Source: Patescibacteria group bacterium (lineage in GTDB: Bacteria; Patescibacteriota; Minisyncoccia; UBA6257; GWB1-50-10). From it: a stretch of DNA of 64,000 nt. The notes under the pieces were generated by a model. That model did not search any database. It was not told the DNA's origin and saw only the letters and a list, made by a program, of their open reading frames with translations. The DNA is taken from NCBI GenBank assembly GCA_040757555.1, contig JBFLWN010000005.1:8045-72044 (forward strand), in the 5' to 3' direction. A program made the position numbers and the translations under genes. Positions 2,113 to 57,628 of this stretch are shown here, piece after piece. Position 1 is the first letter of the stretch; every line of letters begins with the position of its first letter.

Positions 2113-2502
2113 TTATCTTATATATTTTTTTACTCTTTCAATCATCTCTTGTATCGAAATATTCGCTTTAATAAGATAATCGGACGCGCCAAGTTTTTTA
2201 GCTTTACTCACATCTTCATCTTGGCCAAGATTAGAGACCATGATAACGGGGATATGCAGAAGGTCTGGATCTGACTTAAGTATTTTCAATGTATCAAAAC
2301 CATTCTGGATCGGCATGATAATATCCAGAAGAATTAATTGTGGATCTTTTTGTTTTGCAATTTCGAGAACTTCTCTCCCATTACTCGCCAAAAACACAAC
2401 ATATCCCTCTTTTTCTAACTTGAGACGAAAAATATTCGCATAATTTTTATCATCTTCACCTACCAATATTTTATTTTTTTTAGGAACTATTTTGTTTTCC
2501 AT
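2113..2502 (-). CDS. Response regulator, receiver domain only (CheY-like)
   Basis: 129 aa; ILVGEDD...LLDIIMP...SNLGQDED...KLGASDYLIK receiver motifs; no output domain. Confidence 0.85.
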   Translation of the reverse strand: MENKIVPKKNKILVGEDDKNYANIFRLKLEKEGYVVFLASNGREVLEIAKQKDPQLILLDIIMPIQNGFDTLKILKSDPDLLHIPVIMVSNLGQDEDVSKAKKLGASDYLIKANISIQEMIERVKKYIR

Positions 2503-4445: not shown

Positions 4446-4904
4446 TTATCGAGTAACTGTTATGGTTTGAGAATTTTCTGCGTGGGGAGCGGTGACAGTG
4501 ATTCTTGAATTTGCTGTCTTCAAAATACTGTATCCGGTACCCACAGTGGATGTCGATTGTGGGTCGACTGGAATTGCAGTCAAATATTTTTCATTGAGTG
4601 CGAGTGTATCAGTCAGATTTACTAGAGATGTACAAGATGAAGTTGCAATCGTGCTTCTACAGATTTCTGTGGTGGTGGTAGTCACTGTTGAGGGAATTGT
4701 TCCTGAATTATCGATCGCATATTGATATACGGCATTCAATATCGTATTTACATCTGCTTTTCTCTGGGTATTCCTTGCATCCGCAAGTTGTTTTCCGGGA
4801 TTGATTGCGAGAATCACGATACCCGCAAGAATTGCGATAATTGCAACGACTAATAATACTTCGAGTAAGGTAAACCCATTTTGTTTTTTGTTGTATGTTT
4901 TCAT
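4446..4904 (-). CDS. Type IV pilin paralog (tandem duplicate of 3877..4338)
   Basis: MKTYNKKQNGFTLLEVLLVVAIIAILAGIV; N-terminal ~70 aa nearly identical to the neighbouring pilin; C-terminus divergent and Thr-rich. Alternative start at 4928. Confidence 0.8.
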   Translation of the reverse strand: MKTYNKKQNGFTLLEVLLVVAIIAILAGIVILAINPGKQLADARNTQRKADVNTILNAVYQYAIDNSGTIPSTVTTTTTEICRSTIATSSCTSLVNLTDTLALNEKYLTAIPVDPQSTSTVGTGYSILKTANSRITVTAPHAENSQTITVTR

Positions 4905-14075: not shown

Positions 14076-14102
14076 AAAACCCCGCTATTGGCGGGGTTTT
14101 TG
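14075..14102. terminator. Bidirectional rho-independent terminator between convergent genes
   Basis: AAAAACCCCGCTATTGGCGGGGTTTTTG. Confidence 0.75.
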
Positions 14103-42503: not shown

Positions 42504-42578
42504 TCCGGAGTAGCTCAGCGGTAGAGCAGGTGCCTGTTAAGCACTTGGTCGTAGGTTCGAATCCTACCTCCGGAGCCA
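42504..42578 (+). tRNA. tRNA-Asn (anticodon GTT), CCA encoded
   Basis: Acceptor TCCGGAG/CTCCGGA, D-arm GCTC-AGCGGTA-GAGC, anticodon loop CUGUUAA, T-arm GTAGG-TTCGAAT-CCTAC, GCCA 3' end. Confidence 0.85.
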
Positions 42579-44066
42579 AGTAGGACTACTAGCTAGTTCT
42601 AGTACTAAGTTGAAGGGAGAACGCAAGGTAAAATCTAGCGTTCTTTCATTTACGGTCGGGTTCTGAAGCAGATAATTCAAAAATACTCGTTTTTCTTCTG
42701 GTTCAGAACTTTCGAAAATTTGTTTGGCCCTGCGAGCGACAGAAAGTACCATAGATACAGTCGTTTGATAGTCGTAGTCGGCTTTTGTGTGTTCTTCTAG
42801 TTCAATGTTTAAGAGTTGAAGCCTGTCGTGGTATTCTTGATGTTTCTTGTCATAGATATTCTTAGTAATACTCTGTTGTGGATCTAGATAAACCTCAAGA
42901 AGTCGATTGTCCTTCTCTTTGGTTCGTTCATATTCATTGCGTATTCGAGCTATTTGAGCTTTATGAAAAACAATCTCGCTTTCTGTATCTTTTCTCAACT
43001 CTTCTACGAGATAATCTTGAGTTGCTTGTATAATACTCTCAAATCGGCCAAAAACCTCGTATACGGGCTTTAAGAGGTCTTTCTCGGGTATATAAAGCCT
43101 TTTACATATTCTTTTTGCATTTGTGCAGGAATAGTAATTTATTCCTTTATGAAACTCTCCAGACATAGAGCAACCACAGTTACTACATTTAAGTAAGCAA
43201 TTTCCAAATACATATTTTTTCTTCGTAAGTAATTTTGATCTGCGTTTGTTACGTTTTGCACGTACTTGTTGGCACATATCAAAGAGTTCCTTAGTAATTA
43301 ATCTAGGGTATTTGTGAGGGTACGGTCCATATTTTTTTGATATAGCTATTCCACAATAAAAGCTATCTTTTAAGATATGTTCAACTCCACTTTTTGATAG
43401 CTTGTTTTCTTTTAAGGTTCTTAAACCAAGTTCAGTTATTGTATTTCGAATAGTTTCAAGTGAATATTGTCCCGTTGCATATAATTCAAACATTTTTTTT
43501 ATTAAATATTCCCGTTCAGGATCAAGAATAATATCCTTACGCAATCTTTTTTCTGCATCAAGTTGAACATTTAAATAACCTAAACGTACTACTCCTGTCC
43601 ATTCTCCATTCCTACGCTTTTGTTCAAATGCCCGTTTTACATTATCGCTAATAGCGTCTGAATAATACTTAGAAAGACCAAGTTTCATTCCAAACGCAAA
43701 CTTATCCCCGGCAGACATTTTGTTGTTGATTACTTGTCCATCTGAAACAAAATGAAGTTCAATTTTATCATCAACAGCTCGCTCATAAAGTAACGCAACT
43801 CGCTTATCAAAGATATTTCGAGATAAACGATCTACCTTATCAAAACAAACCGCAATTTTTTCTTTAGAATTGTTTACACATTCAATGATTTTGTCGAATT
43901 CGTCTCTTTTGGTTTTATATGCACTTTCATCAAAACTGAACTCTTGAGTAACAATATAATCATTTCGTTCACAATAATCACGCATACGATTAAGCTGAGC
44001 GGGTAAGGAATTATTAGCCTCTCTTTGCTCTTCAGTTGACACTCTTGCTACGATTACTGCTTTCAT
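42564..44066 (-). CDS. Large serine recombinase (integrase)
   Basis: N-terminal resolvase catalytic domain AVIVARVSTEEQ (Ser nucleophile); recombinase domain; Cys-rich zinc ribbon (CSNCGC...C..C); C-terminal coiled coil. Confidence 0.85.
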   Translation of the reverse strand: MKAVIVARVSTEEQREANNSLPAQLNRMRDYCERNDYIVTQEFSFDESAYKTKRDEFDKIIECVNNSKEKIAVCFDKVDRLSRNIFDKRVALLYERAVDDKIELHFVSDGQVINNKMSAGDKFAFGMKLGLSKYYSDAISDNVKRAFEQKRRNGEWTGVVRLGYLNVQLDAEKRLRKDIILDPEREYLIKKMFELYATGQYSLETIRNTITELGLRTLKENKLSKSGVEHILKDSFYCGIAISKKYGPYPHKYPRLITKELFDMCQQVRAKRNKRRSKLLTKKKYVFGNCLLKCSNCGCSMSGEFHKGINYYSCTNAKRICKRLYIPEKDLLKPVYEVFGRFESIIQATQDYLVEELRKDTESEIVFHKAQIARIRNEYERTKEKDNRLLEVYLDPQQSITKNIYDKKHQEYHDRLQLLNIELEEHTKADYDYQTTVSMVLSVARRAKQIFESSEPEEKRVFLNYLLQNPTVNERTLDFTLRSPFNLVLELASSPTWLRR

Positions 44067-44072
44067 AGTTAA

Positions 44073-45038
44073 TTATAAATTTGGTGAATAAGAAATAGAT
44101 TTTATATAATCCTCCATAAATTGCCAATCAAGTTGACCATCGTTAGTAACTGGAAATTTTACCTTCAATGCAGAAAGTCTCTCCTTTGTCGCTCCTCTGC
44201 CATAGTTAAATTTCTTTGCAATTTCCAAATTTAATAGAGGGAGAATAAATTGTGAATTATATCTATTAAGATTCTTATTCCTAAATATATTTACTTTATT
44301 TCCTGTTATGAACGGTGTGGGCTGATAAAATGCCTTAAATCCTTCAGCTCCGATTGTTATGCACCCCCCTTTTTCGGTCGGTATTGATGTTTCATTTTTA
44401 ATGAACAATTCAACTCCATTGTTCTCTGTTGTTCTTGTGACATATGCTATCTTCCCAACTTCTTCGTTTTCAATCTCTTCTCTATGAATTGGCTTACCAA
44501 GTGAAGGCTCAAATATTTCGTCTAGTTTGAAATACTTCCATTTGTCTATATTTAATTTTTTATCTTTTATAGATAATGCTTTTTTTTCTAAAGAATTTAG
44601 TTTATCTAAATCGAGGTCGGTCCATTCATTGGGTATTCTTTCTGGAATTAAAATATCCTTCAATGTTTTGTTTGCCTGCCTACCATAATTATATCTATAT
44701 TTATTCTTACGAATGCAATAACAATAAAAAATCATCTCAATTTCAGATGGTTGTTTTTTGGGTATTAAAATATAAATATCTCTCCCACTATAATATTGCT
44801 CGTGTTGAAAAAAGGTGGCTAAAACAGAACCGCCACCCGCAACTGAAATGGTATGGGCTGGATTCGGCTGAATTTCATTTATTTTTTGTACATAGGCAGA
44901 CACCCCATTGTTTTTGTCGGTTCTAGAAACAAAGTTAACAGAATTCCTGTCTTGTTTCGAACATTCCTCCAAACTAATAAGTTCTAAGTTCACCCCATAC
45001 TTAACTTCAAATAGATCACTAACTTTTACCAACTTCAT
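44073..45038 (-). CDS. Restriction-modification specificity subunit (two target-recognition domains; HsdS/BcgIB-like)
   Basis: Two half-repeats beginning VKVSDLFEVKYG and FKLDEIFEPSLGK; 4-nt overlap with the MTase gene. Confidence 0.6.
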   Translation of the reverse strand: MKLVKVSDLFEVKYGVNLELISLEECSKQDRNSVNFVSRTDKNNGVSAYVQKINEIQPNPAHTISVAGGGSVLATFFQHEQYYSGRDIYILIPKKQPSEIEMIFYCYCIRKNKYRYNYGRQANKTLKDILIPERIPNEWTDLDLDKLNSLEKKALSIKDKKLNIDKWKYFKLDEIFEPSLGKPIHREEIENEEVGKIAYVTRTTENNGVELFIKNETSIPTEKGGCITIGAEGFKAFYQPTPFITGNKVNIFRNKNLNRYNSQFILPLLNLEIAKKFNYGRGATKERLSALKVKFPVTNDGQLDWQFMEDYIKSISYSPNL

Positions 45039-46843
45039 AAATATAGTTCTTTAAAATAAACAAAATCTTTGACCGACTTTACGAAATCTTCTTTAGATAA
45101 ACCCGAATAGTCTGTTTCCATATAAGCCTCAGCACACCACTCATCATCGGCAGAGACAACTTTAGTGACACTAAAACCGGGTCTCTCTTCTTTATTTAGA
45201 TATGAGGTTATCCAATCTTCTTTTATCTCTTTCTCAAATTTCTGATACAAATCAATCCTTCCTTTCATTTTTCGTTTTACAAAACCATCATTTTTATAGT
45301 AACCGAAGTAAACCTTTTTATTTTTAGGATGAGGTCTTTTGGCTGTAAAAACCATAATACAAGAAACGACTCCAACCTTTGAGTTAAAAAATAATTCGTC
45401 AGGCATAGAAAAAACTGCTTCCAGAGTGTGTTGTTCTAGTACCCTTTTTTTATATTCATAAACCTTACCAGTTTGAGCTAGTGCAGATTGCATAGGAATA
45501 ATAGCAACACATTTCCCGCCTTGTTCTAAAGAATCCAGATTGTTTAATATAAATTCATATTCATCTACATCATTTTTCTTGTCTGCTTTATAGGGTGGAT
45601 TCAGAAGCCCTACTGTGGGTTTAAATTTTTTGGCTTTTTTTATAATATCTTCATCAAAACAACTCCCATTCAGAATATTAGTTTTGCCATCTTGATGGAT
45701 AAACATATTTGAACAAGCAAGTGCAAATATATGTGCCTGATATTCGACACCAACTAACTGATTCTTCTTTATATTTTTTATTTTTTCTTGGTCTCCTTTT
45801 GCATCTTTTATCATTAAGTTCATAGCACTAACTAAAAATCCTCCGGTGCCAGCACAATTATCATATACCGTGCTATCCTTATTTACCTCGGCTAATTCCG
45901 ACATAAACTCTGTGATATGCGGAGGCGTAAGAACTATCCCCAAACCTTTGTCACTATTAGCATATCTCAGAAATTCAATATAAAGCTGTCCAAGAACATC
46001 AAAATATTCGTGAGTTTTTATAAAGTCTTTTATATTTTCATTTATATCGGAAATAATATCTCGCAAAACATTGTTTTTCTTTGATAGTGATGTGTCTGTT
46101 TTTATAAATTCAAAGCGACTAGTTAAAATTGCTAACTTAATTTCCCCAATGTTCGCATTTTGAAATTCATTTTTAACCGTGGTGACTAAATATTCAGCTA
46201 ATTGTTTTGGATCTGAATAATCTTTATAAGATTTGGAAAAGGCCTTGTTTTCGAGCGCAATCAAAATACAACTTATAAGTAATCCTCTATCACTTTCAAC
46301 TATTTTTTGTCCGTGTAATTTTTCATTTAATTCCTTAGAAAATATCAATAATTTTTCGTAATCTTGTCTAAATTTTTCAGGACTTTTAATATAACCATCC
46401 AGATAATCATCCGGGGATAAAAGTTTATTACTAAATATTTCAATTGCCTTCCTATCTCCTTTTAGTTGAAGAAAATGTGATATTTTTTTGTTTTTATTCG
46501 TTTCACCACTAACAGCAATAGATAGTACATCAAATTCTTTTGAAAGATATGAACTATACAAAAGAACACCATCTACCGAAAAGTCTTTGTAATTTTCTCT
46601 ACTAGAACTTTCGTGCTTAGTAACATCGGCCTTACATTCAACAACAATAACGAAATCTGGGTTTTTCTTATATTGGATAATAAATTCAGGGAACCCAGTA
46701 CCTAAGCCACCTTTGGAAGCTGTTGCTAATAATTTTTTTATTTTTGGATTATCAGATGATTGTTCTTCTAAAACTATGTTCTTAGGGAATTTTTCGAAAT
46801 GACTTCTGACTATCGACTCGGTTTTCCGTTCGTTTTTTGACAT
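45035..46843 (-). CDS. BcgI-like RM subunit: N-terminal PD-(D/E)xK nuclease domain fused to gamma-class N6-adenine DNA methyltransferase
   Basis: NPDFVIVVECKAD nuclease motif; MTase motif I DNCAGTGGF; motif IV NPPY. Confidence 0.75.
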   Translation of the reverse strand: MSKNERKTESIVRSHFEKFPKNIVLEEQSSDNPKIKKLLATASKGGLGTGFPEFIIQYKKNPDFVIVVECKADVTKHESSSRENYKDFSVDGVLLYSSYLSKEFDVLSIAVSGETNKNKKISHFLQLKGDRKAIEIFSNKLLSPDDYLDGYIKSPEKFRQDYEKLLIFSKELNEKLHGQKIVESDRGLLISCILIALENKAFSKSYKDYSDPKQLAEYLVTTVKNEFQNANIGEIKLAILTSRFEFIKTDTSLSKKNNVLRDIISDINENIKDFIKTHEYFDVLGQLYIEFLRYANSDKGLGIVLTPPHITEFMSELAEVNKDSTVYDNCAGTGGFLVSAMNLMIKDAKGDQEKIKNIKKNQLVGVEYQAHIFALACSNMFIHQDGKTNILNGSCFDEDIIKKAKKFKPTVGLLNPPYKADKKNDVDEYEFILNNLDSLEQGGKCVAIIPMQSALAQTGKVYEYKKRVLEQHTLEAVFSMPDELFFNSKVGVVSCIMVFTAKRPHPKNKKVYFGYYKNDGFVKRKMKGRIDLYQKFEKEIKEDWITSYLNKEERPGFSVTKVVSADDEWCAEAYMETDYSGLSKEDFVKSVKDFVYFKELYL

Positions 46844-46847
46844 AAAA

Positions 46848-47030
46848 TTATTTTGTTTTCGTTTTATTTAAAAACTCCTCAAATTCGACTTTGTCTATCC
46901 GAAACTCTTTACCGATTTTATACGCTTTAAGTTTCTTTGCTTTGATGTATCGATAAATCGTCATAATATTTACCTCTAATTTTTCAGCCAAATTTTTTGC
47001 AGTATAAAATTGTTTTTCTCTATCTCCCAT
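46848..47030 (-). CDS. Excisionase/AlpA-family HTH DNA-binding protein
   Basis: 60 aa; NIMTIYRYIKAKKLKAYKIGKEFRI. Confidence 0.55.
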   Translation of the reverse strand: MGDREKQFYTAKNLAEKLEVNIMTIYRYIKAKKLKAYKIGKEFRIDKVEFEEFLNKTKTK

Positions 47031-52295: not shown

Positions 52296-52967
52296 ATGTT
52301 CTGTAAGGTCCCATATACAGCAATAGGAGGAAGACACCGACCTTATCTCGAGGTTGTTTTTTCTAATAAACTGAAAAATAAAAACAGTAACAAAACATTT
52401 GCGATGGTTGATTCTGGTGCAGATCATACCGTTATCCCATTTTCAATAGGGGCATTTATAGGACTAACTGAGCCAACTCAAGAAGAAAAATTAGCAAACG
52501 TAAGTGGTGTTGGTGGTAATTTAAGTTACATAGAAAGAAAATGTAGAATTTATGTCGCTAATAGGATGAGAAACAAGACCTATGGGTTTGATGAAACTGT
52601 TTGGTGGATATATCCAGATGCCGACACACAAAAACAACAAGAATCTCTAGCAAAAACGCTTCAGGAACTACAAGTCCTTCAAGCTCAAAGTTATCCAGGT
52701 AGTGATCTTTTTAATCACTTCGAAAATCAAAAAAAGCAGACAATTGATAATTTTATAGCAATTGCCAATAAATTAGAAACTGGGGTTCTTTTAGGTCGTC
52801 CATTCTTCGATAATTTTGATTTTATCCAGTTCTTCCATAAGGATCGAAGTAGAGAAGACAGGTGTTTTTTTAATTATAAGGTCGCTAACAACAAAGCGGT
52901 TGAGGTATTACCAATTCAACAAACCGACTTTATAAACCAGATTCAAGCTACTAAGCAAGAAGGTTAG
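52296..52967 (+). CDS. Retropepsin-like (clan AA) aspartic protease domain protein
   Basis: AMVDSGADHTVIP (D-S-G-A active site) and LLGRPFF flap/C-terminal motif. Confidence 0.5.
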   Translation: MFCKVPYTAIGGRHRPYLEVVFSNKLKNKNSNKTFAMVDSGADHTVIPFSIGAFIGLTEPTQEEKLANVSGVGGNLSYIERKCRIYVANRMRNKTYGFDETVWWIYPDADTQKQQESLAKTLQELQVLQAQSYPGSDLFNHFENQKKQTIDNFIAIANKLETGVLLGRPFFDNFDFIQFFHKDRSREDRCFFNYKVANNKAVEVLPIQQTDFINQIQATKQEG

Positions 52968-53144
52968 TGTGGAAGGATTTTTTGGGATTTACAAAATCAA
53001 AGATTCCACTAAACTCAAGTTCCTGTTTTATTAACCCCCAATTAAGAGTTCTGAACTTGTTTACCATTGGGAGCAGAGTTGACAAATCTACTTTTATGCC
53101 TTATAATATGGGCAGTATTTTAATTCATAAAAAGGAGTATCAAA

Positions 53145-53585
53145 ATGATTGGTCAATACACCTTAAAACTCTCTGACGTTGTAGCATCCGAGAATTTATT
53201 CTCAGACAAGGAAAAAATTAATAACATTATCCGAGTCCTTACATTTGATTCAATTGAGGGCTTCCTATTCTGTCTCAAATTTAATTTCTTGCCAGGATGG
53301 ACACTTCCAGAAGATATCCAACAGCATCATGTCTTCTACAAAGTGAAAAGAGAAAACGGAGAACTCACTCCCCTCAGATGGGCTGACTCCATACAAGGAG
53401 AAACAGAAAAGATATTTGTCCTCGCCTTGAAAGATAGTACCTTCAGAATAATTCTTCGAGAGAATTATCAAATTCATTTCTCCGAAGTACATTCCGGAAA
53501 TCCAAAAATGATTTTAGGTGTCAGAGAAATTCCGGGTGGCTATGATATAGCTACTGATATCGGAAAATATAGTATACAGAATTAA
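53145..53585 (+). CDS. Hypothetical protein
   Basis: 146-aa ORF followed by a strong terminator. Confidence 0.4.
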   Translation: MIGQYTLKLSDVVASENLFSDKEKINNIIRVLTFDSIEGFLFCLKFNFLPGWTLPEDIQQHHVFYKVKRENGELTPLRWADSIQGETEKIFVLALKDSTFRIILRENYQIHFSEVHSGNPKMILGVREIPGGYDIATDIGKYSIQN

Positions 53586-53588
53586 AAA

Positions 53589-53616
53589 GAAACCCCGATC
53601 TATTTCGGGGTTTTTT
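53589..53616 (+). terminator. Rho-independent terminator (cassette boundary module)
   Basis: GAAACCCCGATCTATTTCGGGGTTTTTT. Confidence 0.75.
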
Positions 53617-53636
53617 CTTTATTCCACTTTAATCCT

Positions 53637-53706
53637 GGTTCTAATATCGTCTAGCACTGTGAGCAAACGTATTGACAAACGTAAATAACCGTGCTATAAT
53701 TAGCAC
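53637..53706 (+). promoter_or_regulatory. Cassette promoter-operator module copy 1
   Basis: GGTTCTAATATCGTCTAGCACTGTGAGCAAACGTA-TTGACA-17nt-TATAAT; palindrome GTGCTATAATTAGCAC overlaps the -10. Confidence 0.6.
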
Positions 53707-53736
53707 AGAAAATAAAAAACATCAAAGGAGTTTAGT

Positions 53737-54006
53737 ATGGGAACTACGGTATTGGATATTCTAAAAGCTGAACAAACAGCATTGGATATTGCAGCACAAA
53801 AAATTGACCTAACATACGAACAAGTATGTGGGAATTTAAAATTTTATTGTGGCTGGAATCCAAAAACAGAAGAAGGAATAAAAGAACAAATAACTTCTGG
53901 ACTACCGCAACTAAAAGACGTAAAGGTTAAAGTGTGGGGATTTTTTCACGTAAAAATAACTTTTACTATGCCAGACGGAACTCGTAGGAAATATGAGTAC
54001 AAATGA
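53737..54006 (+). CDS. Hypothetical small protein (cassette 1)
   Basis: AAAGGAG RBS; 89 aa. Confidence 0.45.
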   Translation: MGTTVLDILKAEQTALDIAAQKIDLTYEQVCGNLKFYCGWNPKTEEGIKEQITSGLPQLKDVKVKVWGFFHVKITFTMPDGTRRKYEYK

Positions 54007-54094
54007 ATTTTTAACTTAAGCCACCGAAATATATAGTAGGTGGCTTTTTTTCAAAACTCTACATCAATTCAAATTCATTTCGCATTCCTCACCT

Positions 54095-54163
54095 ATTCTC
54101 GTTCTAATATCGTCTAACACTGTGAGCAAACGTATTGACAATAGCACATCTCTGTGCTATTGT
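54095..54163 (+). promoter_or_regulatory. Cassette promoter-operator module copy 2
   Basis: TCTCGTTCTAATATCGTCTAACACTGTGAGCAAACGTA-TTGACA; palindrome ATAGCACATCTCTGTGCTAT in the spacer; TATTGT -10 candidate. Confidence 0.6.
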
Positions 54164-54190
54164 TTTTATAGTTCTATCACACAAATAAAT

Positions 54191-54427
54191 ATGGAAGAAA
54201 AGGCATTTTTAGTCGGAACGCACAGAGCAATGTTTCACGCTGGAGAACCAGCTGAAATTACTGAAGTTGTTTTTTCAACTCCAGAAGGACTTAAACCTCG
54301 TGCCTGTTATCGAGTTCGTTTTGAAAATGGAGATGAAGACCTTATACCGATTTCTGAATCTCATCATTTCGAAATAATATCGGAAAGTGATGTAAAATCA
54401 GAAAAAATACCTGAAGTTATTCATTGA
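54191..54427 (+). CDS. Hypothetical small protein (cassette 2)
   Basis: Start MEEKAFLVG downstream of the promoter module; the ORF-track start 54122 lies inside the promoter. Confidence 0.45.
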   Translation: MEEKAFLVGTHRAMFHAGEPAEITEVVFSTPEGLKPRACYRVRFENGDEDLIPISESHHFEIISESDVKSEKIPEVIH

Positions 54428-54439
54428 TCAATATTAGAA

Positions 54440-54466
54440 AGAAACCCCGAAATTCTCGGGGTTTTT
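54440..54466 (+). terminator. Rho-independent terminator (cassette boundary module)
   Basis: GAAACCCCGAAATTCTCGGGGTTTTT followed by GCTATTTTATATCCCCCAC. Confidence 0.75.
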
Positions 54467-54486
54467 GCTATTTTATATCCCCCACC

Positions 54487-54552
54487 CTCGTTCTAATATC
54501 ATCTAAAACTCTGAGCTAAAATTAAAAAAGATGATTTTGCGTCATCTTTTTT
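54487..54552 (+). promoter_or_regulatory. Degenerate module copy (no -35) plus hairpin terminator
   Basis: CTCGTTCTAATATCATCTAAAACTCTGAGCTAAAATT then AAGATGATTTTGCGTCATCTTTTTT. Confidence 0.45.
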
Positions 54553-54674
54553 AATTTCTGTTTTTTGACGGTAGGATTCGAACGGGAAAGGGGTCGGGAA
54601 AACGGAAGTTTTCCCGTGGTGGAAGTATTGAAACCGCAAGGTGTCAGAGAGCGAATAAAATGGGCGACGTGAGA

Positions 54675-54689
54675 TTCCTACCTCCGGAG
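54675..54689 (+). repeat. 15-bp exact direct repeat of tRNA-Asn 3' end (TCCTACCTCCGGAGC); candidate attR core
   Basis: Identical to 42562..42576; extended 17/18 match. Confidence 0.65.
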
Positions 54690-54694
54690 CATCC

Positions 54695-54723
54695 ATTGAC
54701 AATAGCATAGAAATATGCTATTT
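54695..54723 (+). promoter_or_regulatory. Cassette promoter-operator module copy 3
   Basis: TTGACA-ATAGCATAGAAATATGCTAT(palindrome)-TATTTT at 17-bp spacing; immediately follows the tRNA-fragment repeat. Confidence 0.55.
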
Positions 54724-54760
54724 TGTTTGTAGAAATTATTAACAAATTATAGGTGAAAGA

Positions 54761-55189
54761 ATGAAGGGAAAATTGCCGATCACAGAAAAAATTATCCTCG
54801 AAAGCAATGAGGATCAGTGGCGATTAAAAGTAAAAAAACTCATCACTGATTTCAAGACGTCTGGGATCATTGAAAAAGAACCTGGCACAAAAGTGCGAGT
54901 GCAACTTACAATAAACGAAATCATTCCTCCGGAAAGGGTCCGCTGGGAAAAAATACTGTCTCTCAAAACAGACAACCATGAGGAATATACGGAAAGTCTA
55001 AGAAAATCGCTTTTGTTTCTCTATGATTCGATGCTCAAGACAATCTGGACCTTTTATGGATACATAGAAGGAGAACAAAGAATCCCTATAATCATTATTT
55101 ACGTCGAATCCACGAATGTTGGTATATATACGCAAAAACTGAAAAGTGAATCGACAGAACATTTTTTCCCACCACATCTCTTGAATTAA
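54761..55189 (+). CDS. Hypothetical protein (cassette 3a)
   Basis: RBS AGGTGAAAG; 142 aa. Confidence 0.45.
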   Translation: MKGKLPITEKIILESNEDQWRLKVKKLITDFKTSGIIEKEPGTKVRVQLTINEIIPPERVRWEKILSLKTDNHEEYTESLRKSLLFLYDSMLKTIWTFYGYIEGEQRIPIIIIYVESTNVGIYTQKLKSESTEHFFPPHLLN

Positions 55190-55201
55190 AAGGAGGTAAC
55201 C

Positions 55202-55570
55202 ATGCCACTCGTACTTGTGCAGTATAAACAATTAGCATTCCTGGAAGAGGTTGTAGAAAAACTTTCAAAAGCGCTTCCAAAGATTGTAGCACCGAACCTT
55301 AATCTTTCTGAATATGAACGACTCGCGGGAGGTGTACTTCCAGAAGATATTATTGTTCGATGCACCAAGGGAGGGAAAATGGATACAAATGAAAAAGATA
55401 TTGGAATCATTATCTTTGCCCACGACTTCCCCGAGCGAAAAGAAAATCTCGAAGAACGCAAAGACGCTATCATAAAAGGCATTCATGAGTTTCTGGCTAC
55501 CAATTATGAACGCAACGTCTCTGGCTTCGTATGGATACTACTCGCACCGTCTGCATTTGGACAGTTATAA
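55202..55570 (+). CDS. Hypothetical protein (cassette 3b)
   Basis: AAAGGAGG RBS 12 nt after the previous stop; 122 aa. Confidence 0.45.
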   Translation: MPLVLVQYKQLAFLEEVVEKLSKALPKIVAPNLNLSEYERLAGGVLPEDIIVRCTKGGKMDTNEKDIGIIIFAHDFPERKENLEERKDAIIKGIHEFLATNYERNVSGFVWILLAPSAFGQL

Positions 55571-55576
55571 TTAATA

Positions 55577-55605
55577 TAAAACCCCGATCTATTTCGGGGT
55601 TTTTT
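55577..55605 (+). terminator. Rho-independent terminator (cassette boundary module)
   Basis: AAAACCCCGATCTATTTCGGGGTTTTTT followed by GCTATTTTATATCCCCCAC. Confidence 0.75.
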
Positions 55606-55623
55606 GCTATTTTATATCCCCCA

Positions 55624-55693
55624 CTCTCGTTCTAATATCGTCCAAAACGTTGAATAAATATATTGACTAACACCACCCGTAAGTGGTATTTTG
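55624..55693 (+). promoter_or_regulatory. Cassette promoter-operator module copy 4
   Basis: CTCGTTCTAATATCGTCCAAAACG...TTGACT-17nt-TATTTT with CCAC..GTGG inverted repeat in the spacer. Confidence 0.5.
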
Positions 55694-55730
55694 TTTTTAG
55701 TTGTTTATCAATATCATTTTGGAGGTTTCT

Positions 55731-56297
55731 ATGAGAATTACAGAACAAGTAAGAGAATTACTCGAAGAACTCATGGATAATAAATGGCACCTTCAACCGC
55801 CTCGTGGGGTTGGAAGGAAAACAGTAGATTTCTGGATTGAACGCAATTGGATCAAAACAAAAACCGTTCCAATCGCCAGCAAAAATAAAGTCCAATCCTT
55901 TTTTATGCCACTTCAAATTACAAAGAAGGGGCGAATTGTCTATCTGAATCAGAAATATCAAAACAAGAAACGTTTACCGAAAGAACTCATTGAATACCGA
56001 TTAAAACAACTTCGACAAGTGGTAGGCGTTCAGGTTGTCCGATCTCTTCAAACACGGAAATCATTTCTTTTTGAGTGGCGCCGTTCAACCCCCCACAACT
56101 GGTGGGTAGAGAACAGGAGGGGCAAAATGCTGTGGCATTCTTCTGACGATCGCAGTATACGACAAATCCCCGATTCGATGTTATTCGAAATAGTAAAACA
56201 CTCAAAAAATCTTATCATTACCGGTTCGTGGCTTGCAGGAAGAGATGAAGGAAGGCCCGAAGAAACAATATATCGACTTAAAAAGATTTATTCTTAA
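55731..56297 (+). CDS. Hypothetical basic protein (cassette 4)
   Basis: GGAGG RBS then ATG (MRITEQ); 188 aa; Trp/Arg-rich. Confidence 0.45.
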   Translation: MRITEQVRELLEELMDNKWHLQPPRGVGRKTVDFWIERNWIKTKTVPIASKNKVQSFFMPLQITKKGRIVYLNQKYQNKKRLPKELIEYRLKQLRQVVGVQVVRSLQTRKSFLFEWRRSTPHNWWVENRRGKMLWHSSDDRSIRQIPDSMLFEIVKHSKNLIITGSWLAGRDEGRPEETIYRLKKIYS

Positions 56298-56302
56298 AAA
56301 CA

Positions 56303-56328
56303 AAACCCCGATAACCATCGGGGTTTTT
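56303..56328. terminator. Terminator (partial boundary module)
   Basis: AAAACCCCGATAACCATCGGGGTTTTTGCTATA. Confidence 0.7.
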
Positions 56329-56350
56329 GCTATACTCTAAAACAAAATAT

Positions 56351-57628
56351 TTATTTCGATTCTTTGAGCTTATTAATTTCCTCCTTTAAGGCAACCATCT
56401 TAAGCTCCCGACCCACCATAAGTTGATTCAATCTTGTAAGCTCATTTACTTTTTCCGTAATCACAAGGTCGTTTTGTTTTCTTTTTGTGATATCAATAAT
56501 GGAACCAACCATTCGTATGGGCTTTTTTGTTTCATCATATTTTGTCACCCCTGTCGCCAAAAACCATTTATAATCCCCTCCTTTTGTCTTCAATCGATAT
56601 TCGGTTTCAAAAGGTTTTCCATCTTGGAAACATTGATTCACAATTGCAAAAGTTTTTTCCATGTCCTCGGGATGCAAAATAGCCTTAAACGCATCAAGAT
56701 TTTCTTTTAACTCACCCGATTCGTATCCAAGAAGCGCACACACTCGTGGAGACCAAAAAACATGATTCGTGAGCACATTCCAATCCCATATCCCCGCTCC
56801 CGTTCCGTTAACTGCCAACCTATATGTTTCTTCTGTCTCGCGCAATTTTTCTTCAAGATCTTTATATTTTTTAATCATCTCCTCAAGAGTAACTATTTTT
56901 GTTTCAAGATCAGAGCGAAAGTTTACTATTTCCCAAAAGTTTTTTGGTTTCTCTCGTTTTTCTTCAGAAAACCCTCCTGATTTCAAGAGATACGCAATAA
57001 GAGGCGCACCAATGAAAGACAATACCAAACGAGTTATAAGATTACTTTTTAACATCGAGGCATAGAGATCTGAATTCCAAAAGGCTCCCGTAGTAAACAC
57101 GAGAGCATCAAGTGCAAAAACTCCGAATATAATAATAAAAACACGAACAGGGAGAGGAAGAGATTTTACCTTCGAAAGAAGTTCCCACACAAATGCCAAA
57201 AAGAGAATATCAAGCACAATAGCGAGAATGGACCAAAAATAATACACTCCGCGCGTCAGATCAAACTGCACCCAATGAGTGACGTCTACCTGGAGATTTA
57301 AAAGATATACTATACCGATATAAAAAAATGAAGTAAATAATACCGTAAATAATCCGAATCTCCCTGCACGTGGCCCCTCGAAGAGATATAAAAAAAGTAT
57401 GGCAAACATAAGAGTAGTAAAAAAAGAGAATGATCCAATGAGGAAAAACCATTGATTCACTACAATTGAAAACCCAAGATCGGTGAGATTGTGAGTAAGG
57501 ATTGTTAACATCCCTATGTATGCATAGAACGGGATGAGTGTAATACGATTCCTCGTGCGATAAAGGATCCCAACAAAAAACCAAAGAAGAAGTGTCTGCA
57601 CGCACAAAATAAGAAAAGGAGTAATCAT
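56351..57628 (-). CDS. Membrane PAS-domain sensor protein (multi-TM N-terminus, PAS, coiled coil; no catalytic output)
   Basis: About 8 TM, then a PAS fold (GIWDWNVLTNHVFWSPR...KPFETEYRLKTKGGDYKWF). Confidence 0.6.
   Translation of the reverse strand: MITPFLILCVQTLLLWFFVGILYRTRNRITLIPFYAYIGMLTILTHNLTDLGFSIVVNQWFFLIGSFSFFTTLMFAILFLYLFEGPRAGRFGLFTVLFTSFFYIGIVYLLNLQVDVTHWVQFDLTRGVYYFWSILAIVLDILFLAFVWELLSKVKSLPLPVRVFIIIFGVFALDALVFTTGAFWNSDLYASMLKSNLITRLVLSFIGAPLIAYLLKSGGFSEEKREKPKNFWEIVNFRSDLETKIVTLEEMIKKYKDLEEKLRETEETYRLAVNGTGAGIWDWNVLTNHVFWSPRVCALLGYESGELKENLDAFKAILHPEDMEKTFAIVNQCFQDGKPFETEYRLKTKGGDYKWFLATGVTKYDETKKPIRMVGSIIDITKRKQNDLVITEKVNELTRLNQLMVGRELKMVALKEEINKLKESK

Follow-up and report, generated by a model that had tools for sequence, protein, structure and literature searches.

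Why the same boundary sequence returns between consecutive small genes of this Patescibacteria locus, and by which process it came to stand there, is the question addressed here. In the window, that is, the whole 64,000-nucleotide stretch of DNA that was analysed, a preliminary description had reported a recurring unit of terminator, promoter and palindromic operator, and our analysis confirmed the recurrence itself. A 27-nt motif, GTTCTAATATCnTCnAnnACnnTGAgc, is present four times in the interval of 53.6-55.7 kb (chance expectation 0), and a fifth, variant copy at 53048 lies beyond the region described before. The 22-mer TCGTTCTAATATCGTCTAACAC was found with up to three mismatches at 53636, 54099, 54488 and 55627, always on the forward strand, and gave 0 matches in 100 shuffles; likewise, a weight-matrix scan returned the four copies and the diverged fifth, with 0.05 matches expected in each shuffled window. 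Exact copies of the spacer GCTATTTTATATCCCCCAC occur only at 54467 and 55606. Each motif copy goes with one or two small ORFs, for which an intrinsic terminator and a strong sigma70-type promoter are predicted from the sequence. These ORFs are small as reported, although the size range of 79-190 aa and the single-gene layout had to be corrected to 146, 89, 78, 142+122 (a two-gene unit) and 188 aa. We propose, with a probability of roughly 0.7, that the region is the distal and older portion of an island that is hypervariable and anchored at tRNA-Asn(GTT), and that its boundaries are attR-type junctions composed of two unrelated halves, the P arm of a large serine recombinase (LSR) element and a copy of the native promoter (Table 1).

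Table 1. Features of the tRNA-Asn island and its distal cassette array (positions refer to the window)
Feature	Position	Strand	Description
tRNA-Asn(GTT)	42504..42578	+	ARAGORN; island anchor
LSR gene	42564..44066	-	Pfam Resolvase + Recombinase + Zn_ribbon_recom
Type I specificity subunit	44073-45038	-	resident LSR element backbone/cargo
N6 methylase	45035-46843	-	resident LSR element backbone/cargo
HTH_17 Xis-like protein	46848-47030	-	resident LSR element backbone/cargo (44073..47030)
Type-1 P arm (attR)	53005..53074	+	right end of resident LSR element; motif GTTCTGAACTTGTTTACCATTGGGAGC 53048-53074; reverse strand encodes LPMVNKFRTLNWGLIKQELEFS..., within minus-strand ORF 52951-53085
Cassette 0	53079..53585	+	promoter TTGACA-17-TATAAT 53079-53107; 146-aa ORF 53145-53585
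Junction 1, left half	53587..53664	+	bidirectional terminator 53587-53616; type-2 P arm, motif 53638-53664; reverse strand reads LTVLDDIRTRIKVE, then stop
Cassette 1	53672..54006	+	P1 53672-53700 (12/12, extended -10); GTGCTATAATTAGCAC; 89-aa ORF 53737-54006
Junction 2, left half	54020..54127	+	terminator GCCACC..GGTGGC + T-run 54020-54051; type-2 P arm, motif 54101-54127
Cassette 2	54135..54427	+	P2 54135-54163; 8-4-8 palindrome ATAGCACA TCTC TGTGCTAT 54141-54160; 78-aa ORF 54191-54427
Junction 3, left half	54440..54516	+	terminator 54440-54466; GCTATTTTATATCCCCCAC 54467-54485; motif 54490-54516; reverse strand reads LRVLDDIRTRVGDIK, then stop
Non-coding mini-element, 174 nt	54517..54690	+	inserted exactly at GAGC junction
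Cassette 3	54696..55570	+	native tRNA-adjacent promoter type P3 54696-54724; palindrome ATAGCATA GAAA TATGCTAT 54702-54721; ORF4 + ORF5
ORF4	54761-55189	+	142 aa; homologues found; cassette 3 syntenic in L071
ORF5	55202-55570	+	122 aa; second gene of P3 unit
Junction 4, left half	55578..55655	+	terminator 55578-55603; GCTATTTTATATCCCCCAC 55606-55624; motif 55629-55655; reverse strand reads FNVLDDIRTRVGDIK, then stop
Cassette 4	55663..56297	+	P4 55663-55692 (TTGACT); ORF6 55731-56297, 188 aa
Last terminator	56302..56334	+	terminator 56302-56327, then GCTAT 56330-56334; repeats junction start
PAS/VUPS sensor gene	56351-57628	-	convergent; array ends against it

Ends of the tRNA-anchored recombinase elements

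The preliminary description had linked the reiterated boundary to recombination, and this link was borne out, since in four loci LSR elements have the motif as their terminal arm. In the window, the resident element extends over about 10.5 kb from tRNA-Asn to the type-1 arm, and its recombinase shows the LSR domain set, with Pfam E-values of 1e-19, 9e-15 and 1.5e-5 for Resolvase, Recombinase and zinc ribbon, respectively; it has 2248 homologues with E<1e-30, the best 120 of which show 67% identity or more. The gene order of HTH_17, restriction-modification genes and LSR is identical in three further loci (L075-L077), and all four independent elements start at tRNA-Asn and end in the motif. At these far ends, including that of the window, the motif lies in tRNA orientation, and the homology covers at least 45 nt of the element interior and ceases right after GGGAGC. 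The reverse complement of the 3' end of tRNA-Asn (GGTTCGAATCCTACCTCCGGAGCCA) takes in the last five codons and the stop codon of the LSR gene, and this 3' end constitutes the chromosomal 'B arm' of the attachment site; the same overlap was found in L075 and L077, and in L076 it is located at the contig end. The attL sequence, GGAGCCA/AGTAGGAC..AGCTAGTTCTAG, is conserved in L075, L076 and L077, and attL as well as attR sequences are common to all four elements. In L078, whose left-flank genes are those of the window, the site is unoccupied, and TTGACAATAGCACAGAGATGTGCTAT follows 5 nt after tRNA-Asn, so that the native promoter adjoins the tRNA. Reproducible ends at one specific target in four elements, together with this unoccupied site in a relative, identify them as LSR elements, while serial integration anchored at the tRNA is indicated by the tRNA gene, a 15-nt copy of its 3' end at 54676-54690 and five P arms in the window, all of which are oriented as tRNA-Asn. 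No intact element ending in a type-2 arm, the kind found between cassettes, was recovered, and an LSR gene was linked to type-1 arms only.

On the reverse strand, all 23 of 23 motif copies translate into conserved peptides. Across the three codon positions, the variable sites number 11/6/16 in type 1 and 6/4/9 in type 2; synonymous differences affect codons for Pro, Thr, Leu, Asn and Ile. The conservation of the motif is therefore explained by recombinase coding sequence running on the opposite strand, which makes a protein-binding site for gene control an unneeded assumption. The LSR gene appears to read across the attachment site: in the integrated form it ends inside the tRNA (..W-L-R-R-stop), whereas in the excised circle it would run on into the P arm through the predicted junction ..ACCATTGGGAGC/CAAGTAGGACTAC... 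Because the gene crosses the attachment site, the bottom strand of the P arm holds 15-40 codons, a stop codon and a terminator, and the peptides encoded there read L.VLDDIRTR.G..K-stop or LPMVNKFRTLNW.... The left half of each boundary (bidirectional hairpin, GCTATTTTATATCCCCCAC and GTTCTAATATCGTCTA..GAGC) corresponds, in our reading, to the right terminal P arm of an LSR integrative element. Alignment of the motif to the tRNA-Asn 3' end scored better than shuffled versions (p<=0.01 in 9/18 copies), while alignment to the tRNA-His 3' end gave no match and no significant dyad symmetry was found between the arms.

The right half, with 4-7 nt, TTGACA, a palindromic spacer, TGCTATnnT and a YAG start site, is probably a copy of the B' arm promoter that natively lies 5 nt 3' of tRNA-Asn, and would drive the next small gene. 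The distance from GTTC to TTGACA is constant (33-34 nt) across eight promoters, since this fixed spacing is inherited from the junction of tRNA and promoter. A cassette would then begin with a B'-type promoter, continue through its one or two ORFs and close with the following P arm, the hairpin of which may also terminate the cassette transcript. Hairpin terminators of the type AAACCCCGA..TCGGGGTTT are located at 53587, 54440, 55578 and 56302, with a differing hairpin at 54020-54051, and the same type was also found outside the array at 14078 and 58418. One terminator-promoter-operator module under a single repressor is not supported, and the unit is a chimera of an LSR-element end and a native tRNA-adjacent promoter rather than one designed unit: the motif occurs without the promoter at 54490 in the window, at 695 in L002, at 3699, 9193 and 9820 in L056 and in L062, and the promoter occurs without the motif at 1620 in L071 and 9929 in L078.

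The copy at 54490, described earlier as having lost its -35 hexamer, is followed by the 174-nt mini-element, behind which comes a second junction, derived from the tRNA and equipped with a promoter of its own. This mini-element consists of a bidirectional terminator (54519-54557), a T-arm-like piece (54549-54564) and a conserved helix-rich core, and ends in the 15-nt tRNA-Asn 3' end copy TCCTACCTCCGGAGC. A counterpart, alignable at 87% nt identity, lies directly 3' of the true tRNA-Asn in L079, and a diverged copy lies behind the LSR attR in L076; in all three loci it sits at the GAGC edge. At the same edge, two stretches of L056 (8106-8195 and 9135-9224) that are 97% identical become unrelated, and phage-like DNA adjoins it in L062. 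At the L062 junction, DNA of 30% GC meets DNA of 50-57% GC, which could reflect an assembly chimera. Some homology breakpoints lie at a start codon, a -35 hexamer or a terminator instead of GAGC, indicating that general recombination contributes as well.

Cassette content and its exchange between genomes

None of the array ORFs matched a Pfam family, and the 146-aa ORF of cassette 0 also gave no match in PHROGs, PADLOC or NCBIfam. ORF6 has a predicted PadR/MarR-like winged HTH followed by a 100-aa domain that matched none of the solved structures. In the cassettes neither a P' arm nor a recombinase gene was found, only the P arm, with a B'-type promoter as the left end; lacking the P' arm, they are not self-sufficient substrates. 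Cassette content varies between the genomes compared, all of which are metagenome assemblies. L071, a close relative (PAS/VUPS sensor 88% identical at the aa level), is devoid of the ORF6 cassette, and the corresponding site is unoccupied, while the cassette is present in L002 and L056 and hence, including the window, in three arrays. In the comparison of the window with L002, identity amounts to 84% for ORF6 and to 55% for the core PAS/VUPS gene, a difference that shows an apparently recent transfer of the cassette between distant genomes. Moreover, an unrelated ORF in L002 stands behind the same P3 promoter and 5'UTR (91% nt), and in L056 a tRNA-Asn remnant is followed downstream by about 14 small genes with at least 10 motif copies between them.

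How the cassettes stack can be outlined as follows. Integration of the elements would take place at the tRNA or at an attR-like copy of its site, excision via an alternative downstream attR copy could take adjacent cassettes along into a new host, and a subsequent excision could leave these cassettes behind, with homologous recombination in shared promoter, 5'UTR and terminator sequences probably adding mosaicism. Canonical serine integrases recombine attP with attB only, so that stacking at attR-like sites would require either excision that uses alternative attR copies or non-canonical events; that the latter may occur is suggested by a tandem pair in L075.

Homologous recombination might instead account for most of this mobility, the conserved stretches serving as portable homology for RecA-type or short-homology swaps after DNA uptake, with site-specific recombination restricted to the initial integrations. 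Such swaps would fit the P3 promoter and 5'UTR that three unrelated genes (window ORF4, L002 X and L071 655) have in common as far as the ATG, the parting of modules 1 and 2 at the -35 hexamer, and the 37-nt direct repeats (terminator and GCTAT; 55569-55605 and the 56302-56334 copy) that flank the 724-nt ORF6 insertion, unoccupied in L071. However, they leave unexplained the element-end arm in tRNA orientation at every junction as well as the precise GAGC stop of the homology of independent elements, and the tracts of homology are short, at 30-90 nt, with identities of 70-90%, which makes this account unlikely. It is similarly improbable that the array is a passive accumulation of relics of successive tRNA-Asn integrations, in which the element bodies were deleted, the cassettes are immobile today and the ORFs are leftover cargo. 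Partial tRNA copies and P'-like remnants are indeed scattered in the window (54549-54564 and 54676-54690) and in L056 (9193 and 9820), and island growth of this kind was described for Prochlorococcus (10.1101/2020.12.28.424599). However, random deletions would each time have to end 4-7 nt before the -35 hexamer, the peptide-coding arms are intact and not decayed, and the ORF6 cassette appears to have moved recently.

Promoters and palindromes

The promoters at 53079 and 53672 match the consensus at 12/12 positions, those at 54135 and 54696 at 10/12 with an extended -10 TG, and that at 55663 at 9/12. The palindromes quoted in the preliminary description were all recovered, namely GTGCTATAATTAGCAC at 53691-53706, ATAGCACATCTCTGTGCTAT at 54141-54160 and ATAGCATAGAAATATGCTAT at 54702-54721, and had been taken as a shared operator through which one repressor controls all cassettes. 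In this case, the motif (about -69 to -42) would be a transcription-factor site or UP-like element, the palindromes would bind a repressor such as ORF6, and the repeats would be kept by selection for coordinated control. The constant GTTC-TTGACA distance agrees with this idea, as do the 8-4-8 palindromes, which P2, P3 and their orthologues keep through symmetric changes (GCACA/TGTGC versus GCATA/TATGC) and flipped spacers, and the predicted DNA-binding domain of ORF6 in three arrays. However, the 8-4-8 palindrome is common to P2 and P3 only, with none in P0, P1 and P4, in each palindrome the right arm coincides with the extended -10 element, and the half-site TAGCAYA is not enriched (14 in the window versus 20.6 expected). 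In addition, L071 has the promoters yet no ORF6, motif and promoter also occur apart, and both the motif conservation and the fixed spacing are accounted for by the recombinase reading frame and the tRNA-promoter junction. The suggestion that an HTH repressor might be among the small ORFs held as far as the winged HTH of ORF6 is concerned, but control of all cassettes by one repressor is not supported, and we consider a common regulon highly doubtful. Finally, that the modules are MITE copies, as the preliminary description had considered, or REP-like repeats unrelated to the genes is extremely improbable: although the modules are more similar than the genes they flank and the window holds one real miniature insertion (54517-54690), the modules are not framed by terminal inverted repeats or target-site duplications, every copy points the same way, and neither the remaining 60 kb of the window nor the flanking DNA of related loci contained any copy.

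Comparison with known systems

Similar to chromosomal integron arrays, the LSR-derived array combines co-oriented small orphan genes, a lineage-specific reiterated site of about 50-90 nt and strain-variable content. It is nevertheless not an integron, in line with the preliminary description. The only recombinase of the island is of the serine type, with no IntI-type tyrosine recombinase or attI; the motif has no inverted attC-type partner in the window modules, GTTCTAA does not fit GTTRRRY, and the palindromes there are plain terminator hairpins instead of attC-type imperfect palindromes. Rather than promoterless cassettes behind a common Pc, five consensus-like promoters are predicted, one per cassette, and the repeat is serine-recombinase coding sequence on the other strand.

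SCCmec, with its Ccr recombinases and the 3' end of rlmH as its site, exemplifies LSR integrative elements and composite arrays. Common features are a Resolvase, Recombinase and zinc-ribbon recombinase at the element end, integration at the 3' end of a conserved gene, repeated attachment-sequence copies between modules and some modules without recombinase. In contrast, the target here is tRNA-Asn, the host belongs to the Patescibacteria, the recombinase ORF crosses the attachment site, and each module amounts to one small gene (0.4-1.1 kb) preceded by a copy of the promoter that natively flanks the target. Phage 'morons' are genes with their own promoter and terminator inside a mobile element. 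Likewise, each cassette ORF appears to be bracketed by its own sigma70-type promoter and a factor-independent terminator in DNA derived from mobile elements; unlike morons, however, the cassettes are arrayed in tandem outside any phage, and their promoters and terminators are parts of the recombination junction. Integrase genes that span attP are known from Myxococcus phage Mx8 (intP/intX) and Sulfolobus SSV1 (int), where integration alters the integrase C-terminus. Here, too, the recombinase gene contains the attachment site within its 3' end, and the integrated and excised C-termini would differ, but the recombinase is of the serine type, the last 3-40 codons alone would change, and orphaned C-terminal pieces are reiterated along the array.

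The Prochlorococcus islands and their tycheposons are likewise tRNA-anchored and grown by repeated integration (10.1101/2020.12.28.424599). In both cases the island begins at a tRNA gene with the newest element beside it, partial att or tRNA copies lie further in, left-behind material accumulates, and close relatives are highly heterogeneous. The resident element is not a tycheposon, its recombinase being of the serine and not the tyrosine type, and tycheposon replication/integration module genes were not detected. In contrast to the Prochlorococcus islands, the repeats here are element P arms and not plain tRNA fragments, and the units are regular, with one gene, a promoter and a terminator; the locus would represent a form of tRNA-anchored island growth in an understudied phylum.

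Boundary motif, terminators and genes of the array

The source of the window is a Patescibacteria metagenome-assembled genome. The genes between 53.0 and 56.3 kb are small, all lie on the plus strand (146, 89, 78, 142+122 and 188 aa), and their six proteins gave no match in Pfam, PHROGs, PADLOC or NCBIfam. A reiterated boundary motif had been claimed in the preliminary description, and our analysis bears this out: the 22-mer TCGTTCTAATATCGTCTAACAC was matched at 53636, 54099, 54488 and 55627 and never in 100 shuffles. A weight matrix, for which 0.05 matches are expected per shuffled window, added a diverged copy at 53048. Terminator-like hairpins are enriched between 50 and 60 kb (20 vs 7.4 expected), and four of these terminators have a AAACCCCGA..TCGGGGTTT hairpin in common. 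Hairpins of this type are found at 14078 and 58418 too, where they terminate ordinary genes. The second gene of cassette 3, ORF5 (122 aa, beginning Met-Pro), always follows ORF4 after a short gap, is 84% identical in the related locus L071 and has no family match.

The tRNA-Asn recombinase element and its right arm

A 500-aa large serine recombinase (LSR) is encoded on the strand opposite tRNA-Asn, and its end falls within the tRNA 3' end. Next come the genes of a type I specificity subunit, an N6 methylase and an Xis-like protein of 60 aa (HTH_17), and GC content falls to 0.30-0.33 across the LSR/restriction-modification stretch. In three related loci (L075, L076 and L077) the overlap between LSR 3' end and tRNA-Asn is exactly that of the window, with a conserved post-tRNA sequence. 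In all four elements the far end, 5.9-10.5 kb off, is a motif copy of the GTTCTGAAC type in the same orientation as the tRNA. Conservation covers at least 45 nt on the element side of these ends, and the likeness breaks off directly after GGGAGC. The resident element of the window therefore spans about 42.58-53.07 kb, with the array just past its right end. Since a second recombinase gene adjoins the motif in L075, elements can sit in tandem. The LSR family, with more than 2000 homologues, many about 70% identical, is very large and highly conserved in Patescibacteria, and was absent from an IMG/VR search. Between the HTH_17 gene and the LSR, the window, L076 and L077 each have a different restriction-modification system; from these contents the slot looks like a position for exchangeable defence cargo.

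The reverse complement of every motif copy (23 of 23) translates into a conserved peptide if the frame is set by CTC, which pairs with the GAG of the GAGC edge. Type-1 arms, which end LSR elements, give LP(L/M)(V/L)(N/D)xFRT(L/V)(N/D)W..IK..L(E/Q)F, and type-2 arms, including the four copies of the array, give Lx(V/A)LDD(I/V)RT(R/C)xG..K-stop; GCTATTTTATATCCCCCAC is the complement of ..V-G-D-I-K-stop. Most variable sites are third positions (11/6/16 by codon position in type 1, 6/4/9 in type 2), with synonymous variation between copies in Pro, Thr, Leu, Asn and Ile codons. The conservation of this non-coding-looking repeat is explained by an origin as orphaned recombinase coding sequence. Interpretation of the motif as a T7-like phage promoter or an ECF-sigma promoter, based on sequence resemblance, was dropped given its identity with LSR ends.

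In integrated form the LSR has the C-terminus ..SP(T/N)W-L-R-R-stop, which lies inside the complement of the tRNA (42564-42578). Upon excision, the joined ends would lengthen it through the P arm, the right terminal arm of the element, in the window by about 41 residues (LPMVNKFRTLNWGLIKQELEFS...; minus-strand ORF 52951-53085, extension listed as 52951-53074), and this extension is conserved at the protein level in L075-L077. The excision junction (attP) is predicted as TTGTTTACCATTGGGAGC joined to CAAGTAGGACTACTAGC, and the junction of the LSR 3' end with a type-2 arm as ..CACTGTGAGC joined to CAAGTAGGAC... Read in this way, the LSR ORF is predicted to cross its own attachment site, with a C-terminus that depends on the integration state. 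Since the arm is coding on the opposite strand, the CCCCG hairpin beyond it would end both transcripts, that of the recombinase and that of the cassette, and terminator, spacer and motif are therefore one unit, the right arm of an element. The motif aligns to the tRNA-Asn 3' end better than shuffles, in an alignment that places about 5 additional bases between GGTTC.AA and GGAGC, and does not align to the tRNA-His 3' end. Dyad symmetry between P arm and post-tRNA sequence was not significant (p = 0.3-1.0).

Coordinates of features in the window and in related loci
Feature	Position	Remark
tRNA-Asn(GTT)	window 42504-42578	about 11 kb upstream of array
Element-end motif, GTTCTGAAC type	window 53048; L076 2900; L077 4696; L075 5620	
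HTH_17-LSR slot	window 44073-46843	type I S+M; no R subunit nearby
HTH_17-LSR slot	L076 7484-9994	MmeI-like gene
HTH_17-LSR slot	L077 8358-9999	N4/N6 methylase + EcoO109I-like enzyme
HTH_17-LSR slot	L075 9271-10032	253-aa gene, no family match
Mini-element, about 170 nt	window 54517-54690; L079 4973-5141; L076 2615-2765 (minus); L077 about 4481-4640 (minus)	
Palindrome centres	window 54149-54154 and 54710-54715; L078 about 6990; L079 about 5165	
Leader	window 54726-54763; L002 32-69; L071 620-657	GAAATTATTAACAAnnTAnAGGTGnAAAnATG
ORF5	window 55202-55570	
Split tRNA-Asn	L079 4540-4926	group I intron
Contig end	L062 14696-14819	
Motif-like pair	L073 2132-2158 (minus) and 2374-2400 (plus)	
Motif with inverted partial copy	L056 3699-3790, 9193-9275, 9820-9910	

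Promoters and the mini-element

The five cassette promoters (P0-P4) resemble one consensus: TTGAC(A/T), then an extended -10 (TGCTATnnT) after a 17-nt spacer, and YAG 5-6 nt further on. In L078, where the left-flank genes are as in the window (86% and 59% aa identity), the site is unoccupied, and tRNA-Asn is followed by 5 nt and then TTGACAATAGCACAGAGATGTGCTATTTTG. Remnants of the tRNA end also stand directly before the same promoter type in the window (54676-54690, before P3), L071, L056 and L079. The palindromic promoter is thus the native neighbour of tRNA-Asn, and the constant spacing of 33-34 nt is explained by a motif-promoter junction that reproduces the tRNA-promoter junction. Within the reach of sequence comparison, these data show that the cassette junctions join a P arm to the promoter side of tRNA-Asn (B') and are of the attR type, and we regard attR junctions as the probable explanation of the array (roughly 0.7). 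Of the reiterated terminator and promoter module proposed earlier, terminator, spacer and motif hold together as the right arm, whereas the promoter half belongs to the tRNA-Asn neighbourhood.

An 8-4-8 dyad, ATAGCA(C/T)A-N4-T(G/A)TGCTAT, lies between -35 and -10 in P2, P3 and orthologues, and its changes are symmetric, which suggests selection for symmetry, as operator or hairpin. The notion of one operator shared by all cassettes is limited by three findings: P0, P1 and P4 differ, the right arm of the dyad is the extended -10 element, and the half-site is not enriched within the window. Between orthologous promoters the palindrome centre occurs in both orientations (ATCTCT vs AGAGAT, AGAAAT vs ATTTCT, exact reverse complements), which looks like flip-flop inversion of a hairpin loop. 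Three unrelated genes are preceded by the same 35-nt sequence (in L071 without promoter and between two genes), which appears to be a portable, putatively ribosome-binding leader.

The copy that was said to have lost its -35 has not lost it: after the motif at 54490 a 174-nt non-coding insert intervenes, closing with a 15-nt copy of the tRNA end, and P3 follows. L079 carries an insert 87% identical in nt between the true tRNA-Asn and the promoter, and L076 a diverged copy with compensated helices after the LSR attR. From these positions, it is a miniature insertion at the same junction. An internal helix stays paired despite changed sequence (CGGGAAAAC/GTTTTCCCG vs CGGAAGGGA/TCCCTTCCG), and the left end bears a bidirectional terminator. 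The mini-element is a possible small-RNA gene, whose transcription might run leftwards from the palindromic promoter. Its stretch 54545-54690 had no match in Rfam, which otherwise gave only sub-threshold matches to terminator-like leaders, and single-sequence folding of this stretch was unexceptional (z = -1.9 and -1.5). Readings of the insert ends as a tRNA-like hairpin or as a riboswitch-like P1 stem were rejected, because L079 and L078 show an insertion flanked by tRNA-end repeats.

Cassette turnover and proposed mechanism

Judged by gene content across genomes, the cassettes demonstrably turn over. In L071, whose core genes are 82-96% aa identical to those of the window, P3-ORF4-ORF5-terminator lies directly against the PAS/VUPS sensor gene, without ORF6, whereas the window has 724 extra nt at this site, flanked by a repeat made up of the terminator and GCTAT. 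In L002, a 7.5-kb contig labelled Saccharibacteria, the P3 promoter and 5'UTR (91% nt) precede an unrelated 184-aa ORF, followed by CCCCCACCCTC with the motif and then by an ORF6 homologue. Since ORF6 is far more alike between window and L002 (84% aa, 83% nt) than the PAS/VUPS gene (55% aa, 65% nt), the comparison indicates that the ORF6 cassette was moved by horizontal transfer. The expected variation in cassette content is thus seen in ORF6, absent from L071 and present in L002. Homologues of ORF4 occur also in unrelated contexts (L068, L073), and L071, L078 and L079 each carry different small genes with 1-2 type-2 arms downstream of tRNA-Asn. L056, a distant genome whose ORF6 is 57% identical, contains about 14 small genes in one orientation and no fewer than 10 copies of the motif, written as GTTCYRAC.TCGTCCAG-N6-GGAGC; two of its modules are 97% identical over 90 nt and unrelated directly past GGGGGAGC.

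Three modules of L056 carry, 45-75 nt past the motif, an inverted partial copy of it (..GTTAGAAC), which also resembles the post-tRNA sequence CCAAGNAGGAC; from this arrangement, the modules may be scars with both arms of an attachment site. The idea of an attC-like long hairpin (GTTCTAAC...GTTAGAAC, in three L056 modules) was rejected as it fails for the window copies. L073 contains two diverged motif-like sequences (GTTCGGATTTCGTTCAGGGT.CGGAGC), inverted around GC-rich 190 nt within a 1.1-kb gene-free stretch upstream of its ORF4 homologue. The phage-like contig L062 (IMG/VR UViG_3300009529_003397; terminase, portal, capsid; 50-57% GC) closes in about 125 nt of AT-rich terminator and type-2 arm, with the changeover directly after GGAGC, and represents either a prophage at the junction or an assembly chimera. 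In L079, ARAGORN misses tRNA-Asn because its anticodon loop is split; the interrupting sequence is a group I intron (64 bits to Rfam RF00028), and such introns are already known from Patescibacteria tRNA-Asn (PMC13011429). Except for L002 and L062, exact-pattern scans for the window-type motif in genome, metagenome and viral collections gave single matches at chance level, and no DNA similarity to 53.0-56.4 kb was found in plasmid and phage collections.

Elements would integrate at the tRNA or, as the tandem pair of L075 suggests, at attR-like copies; excision with a more distal attR copy may take the intervening promoter-ORF-arm unit along, and this unit would stay behind at a new site once the element, having integrated there, excised at the proximal attR. 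L078, in which the tRNA-promoter junction is intact and has a single gene and a single arm after it, is in the state predicted by this excision model. To our knowledge, attL and attR do not serve canonical serine integrases as targets, so that integration into attR-like copies is a step that we infer. Active shuttling of cassettes by the LSR is doubtful in our judgement. Some breakpoints lie at the ATG, others at the -35 hexamer or within the terminator, evidence that homologous recombination also acts in the promoter, 5'UTR and terminator tracts that cassettes share. As a tentative model, and one we hold rather unlikely as a whole, the tRNA-Asn LSR with HTH_17 would excise at alternative junctions and shuttle single-gene, promoter-equipped cassettes, with the tRNA-Asn-promoter junction as docking site, every P arm-promoter junction as usable attR and the C-terminus switch as built-in direction control, forming an integron-like serine-recombinase capture platform of Patescibacteria.

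A large part of bacterial diversity lies within the Patescibacteria (CPR), whose genomes are tiny; we know of few mobile elements described in them, and no description of this locus type in CPR was found in the literature. Two things are indicated by the locus: a tRNA-Asn-specific serine-recombinase element, highly conserved and very widespread in Patescibacteria, and a defined hot spot for gain, loss and exchange of small orphan genes between distant lineages. Our findings provide exact attachment sequences, which are testable, and show a predicted LSR C-terminus that depends on the integrated vs excised state; the enzyme family is a candidate source of site-specific integration tools. If cassettes were moved by the recombinase, the system would be a serine-recombinase counterpart of the integron. 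In summary, the recombination-linked boundary and the varying cassettes of the preliminary interpretation stand, while a single operator is not supported and the -35 was not lost. The integron-like architecture noted there is a resemblance of layout only, as all three integron features tested were negative for the array, and the closest known systems are the SCC-type serine-recombinase composite islands and the tRNA-anchored islands of Prochlorococcus, which have grown by repeated integration.
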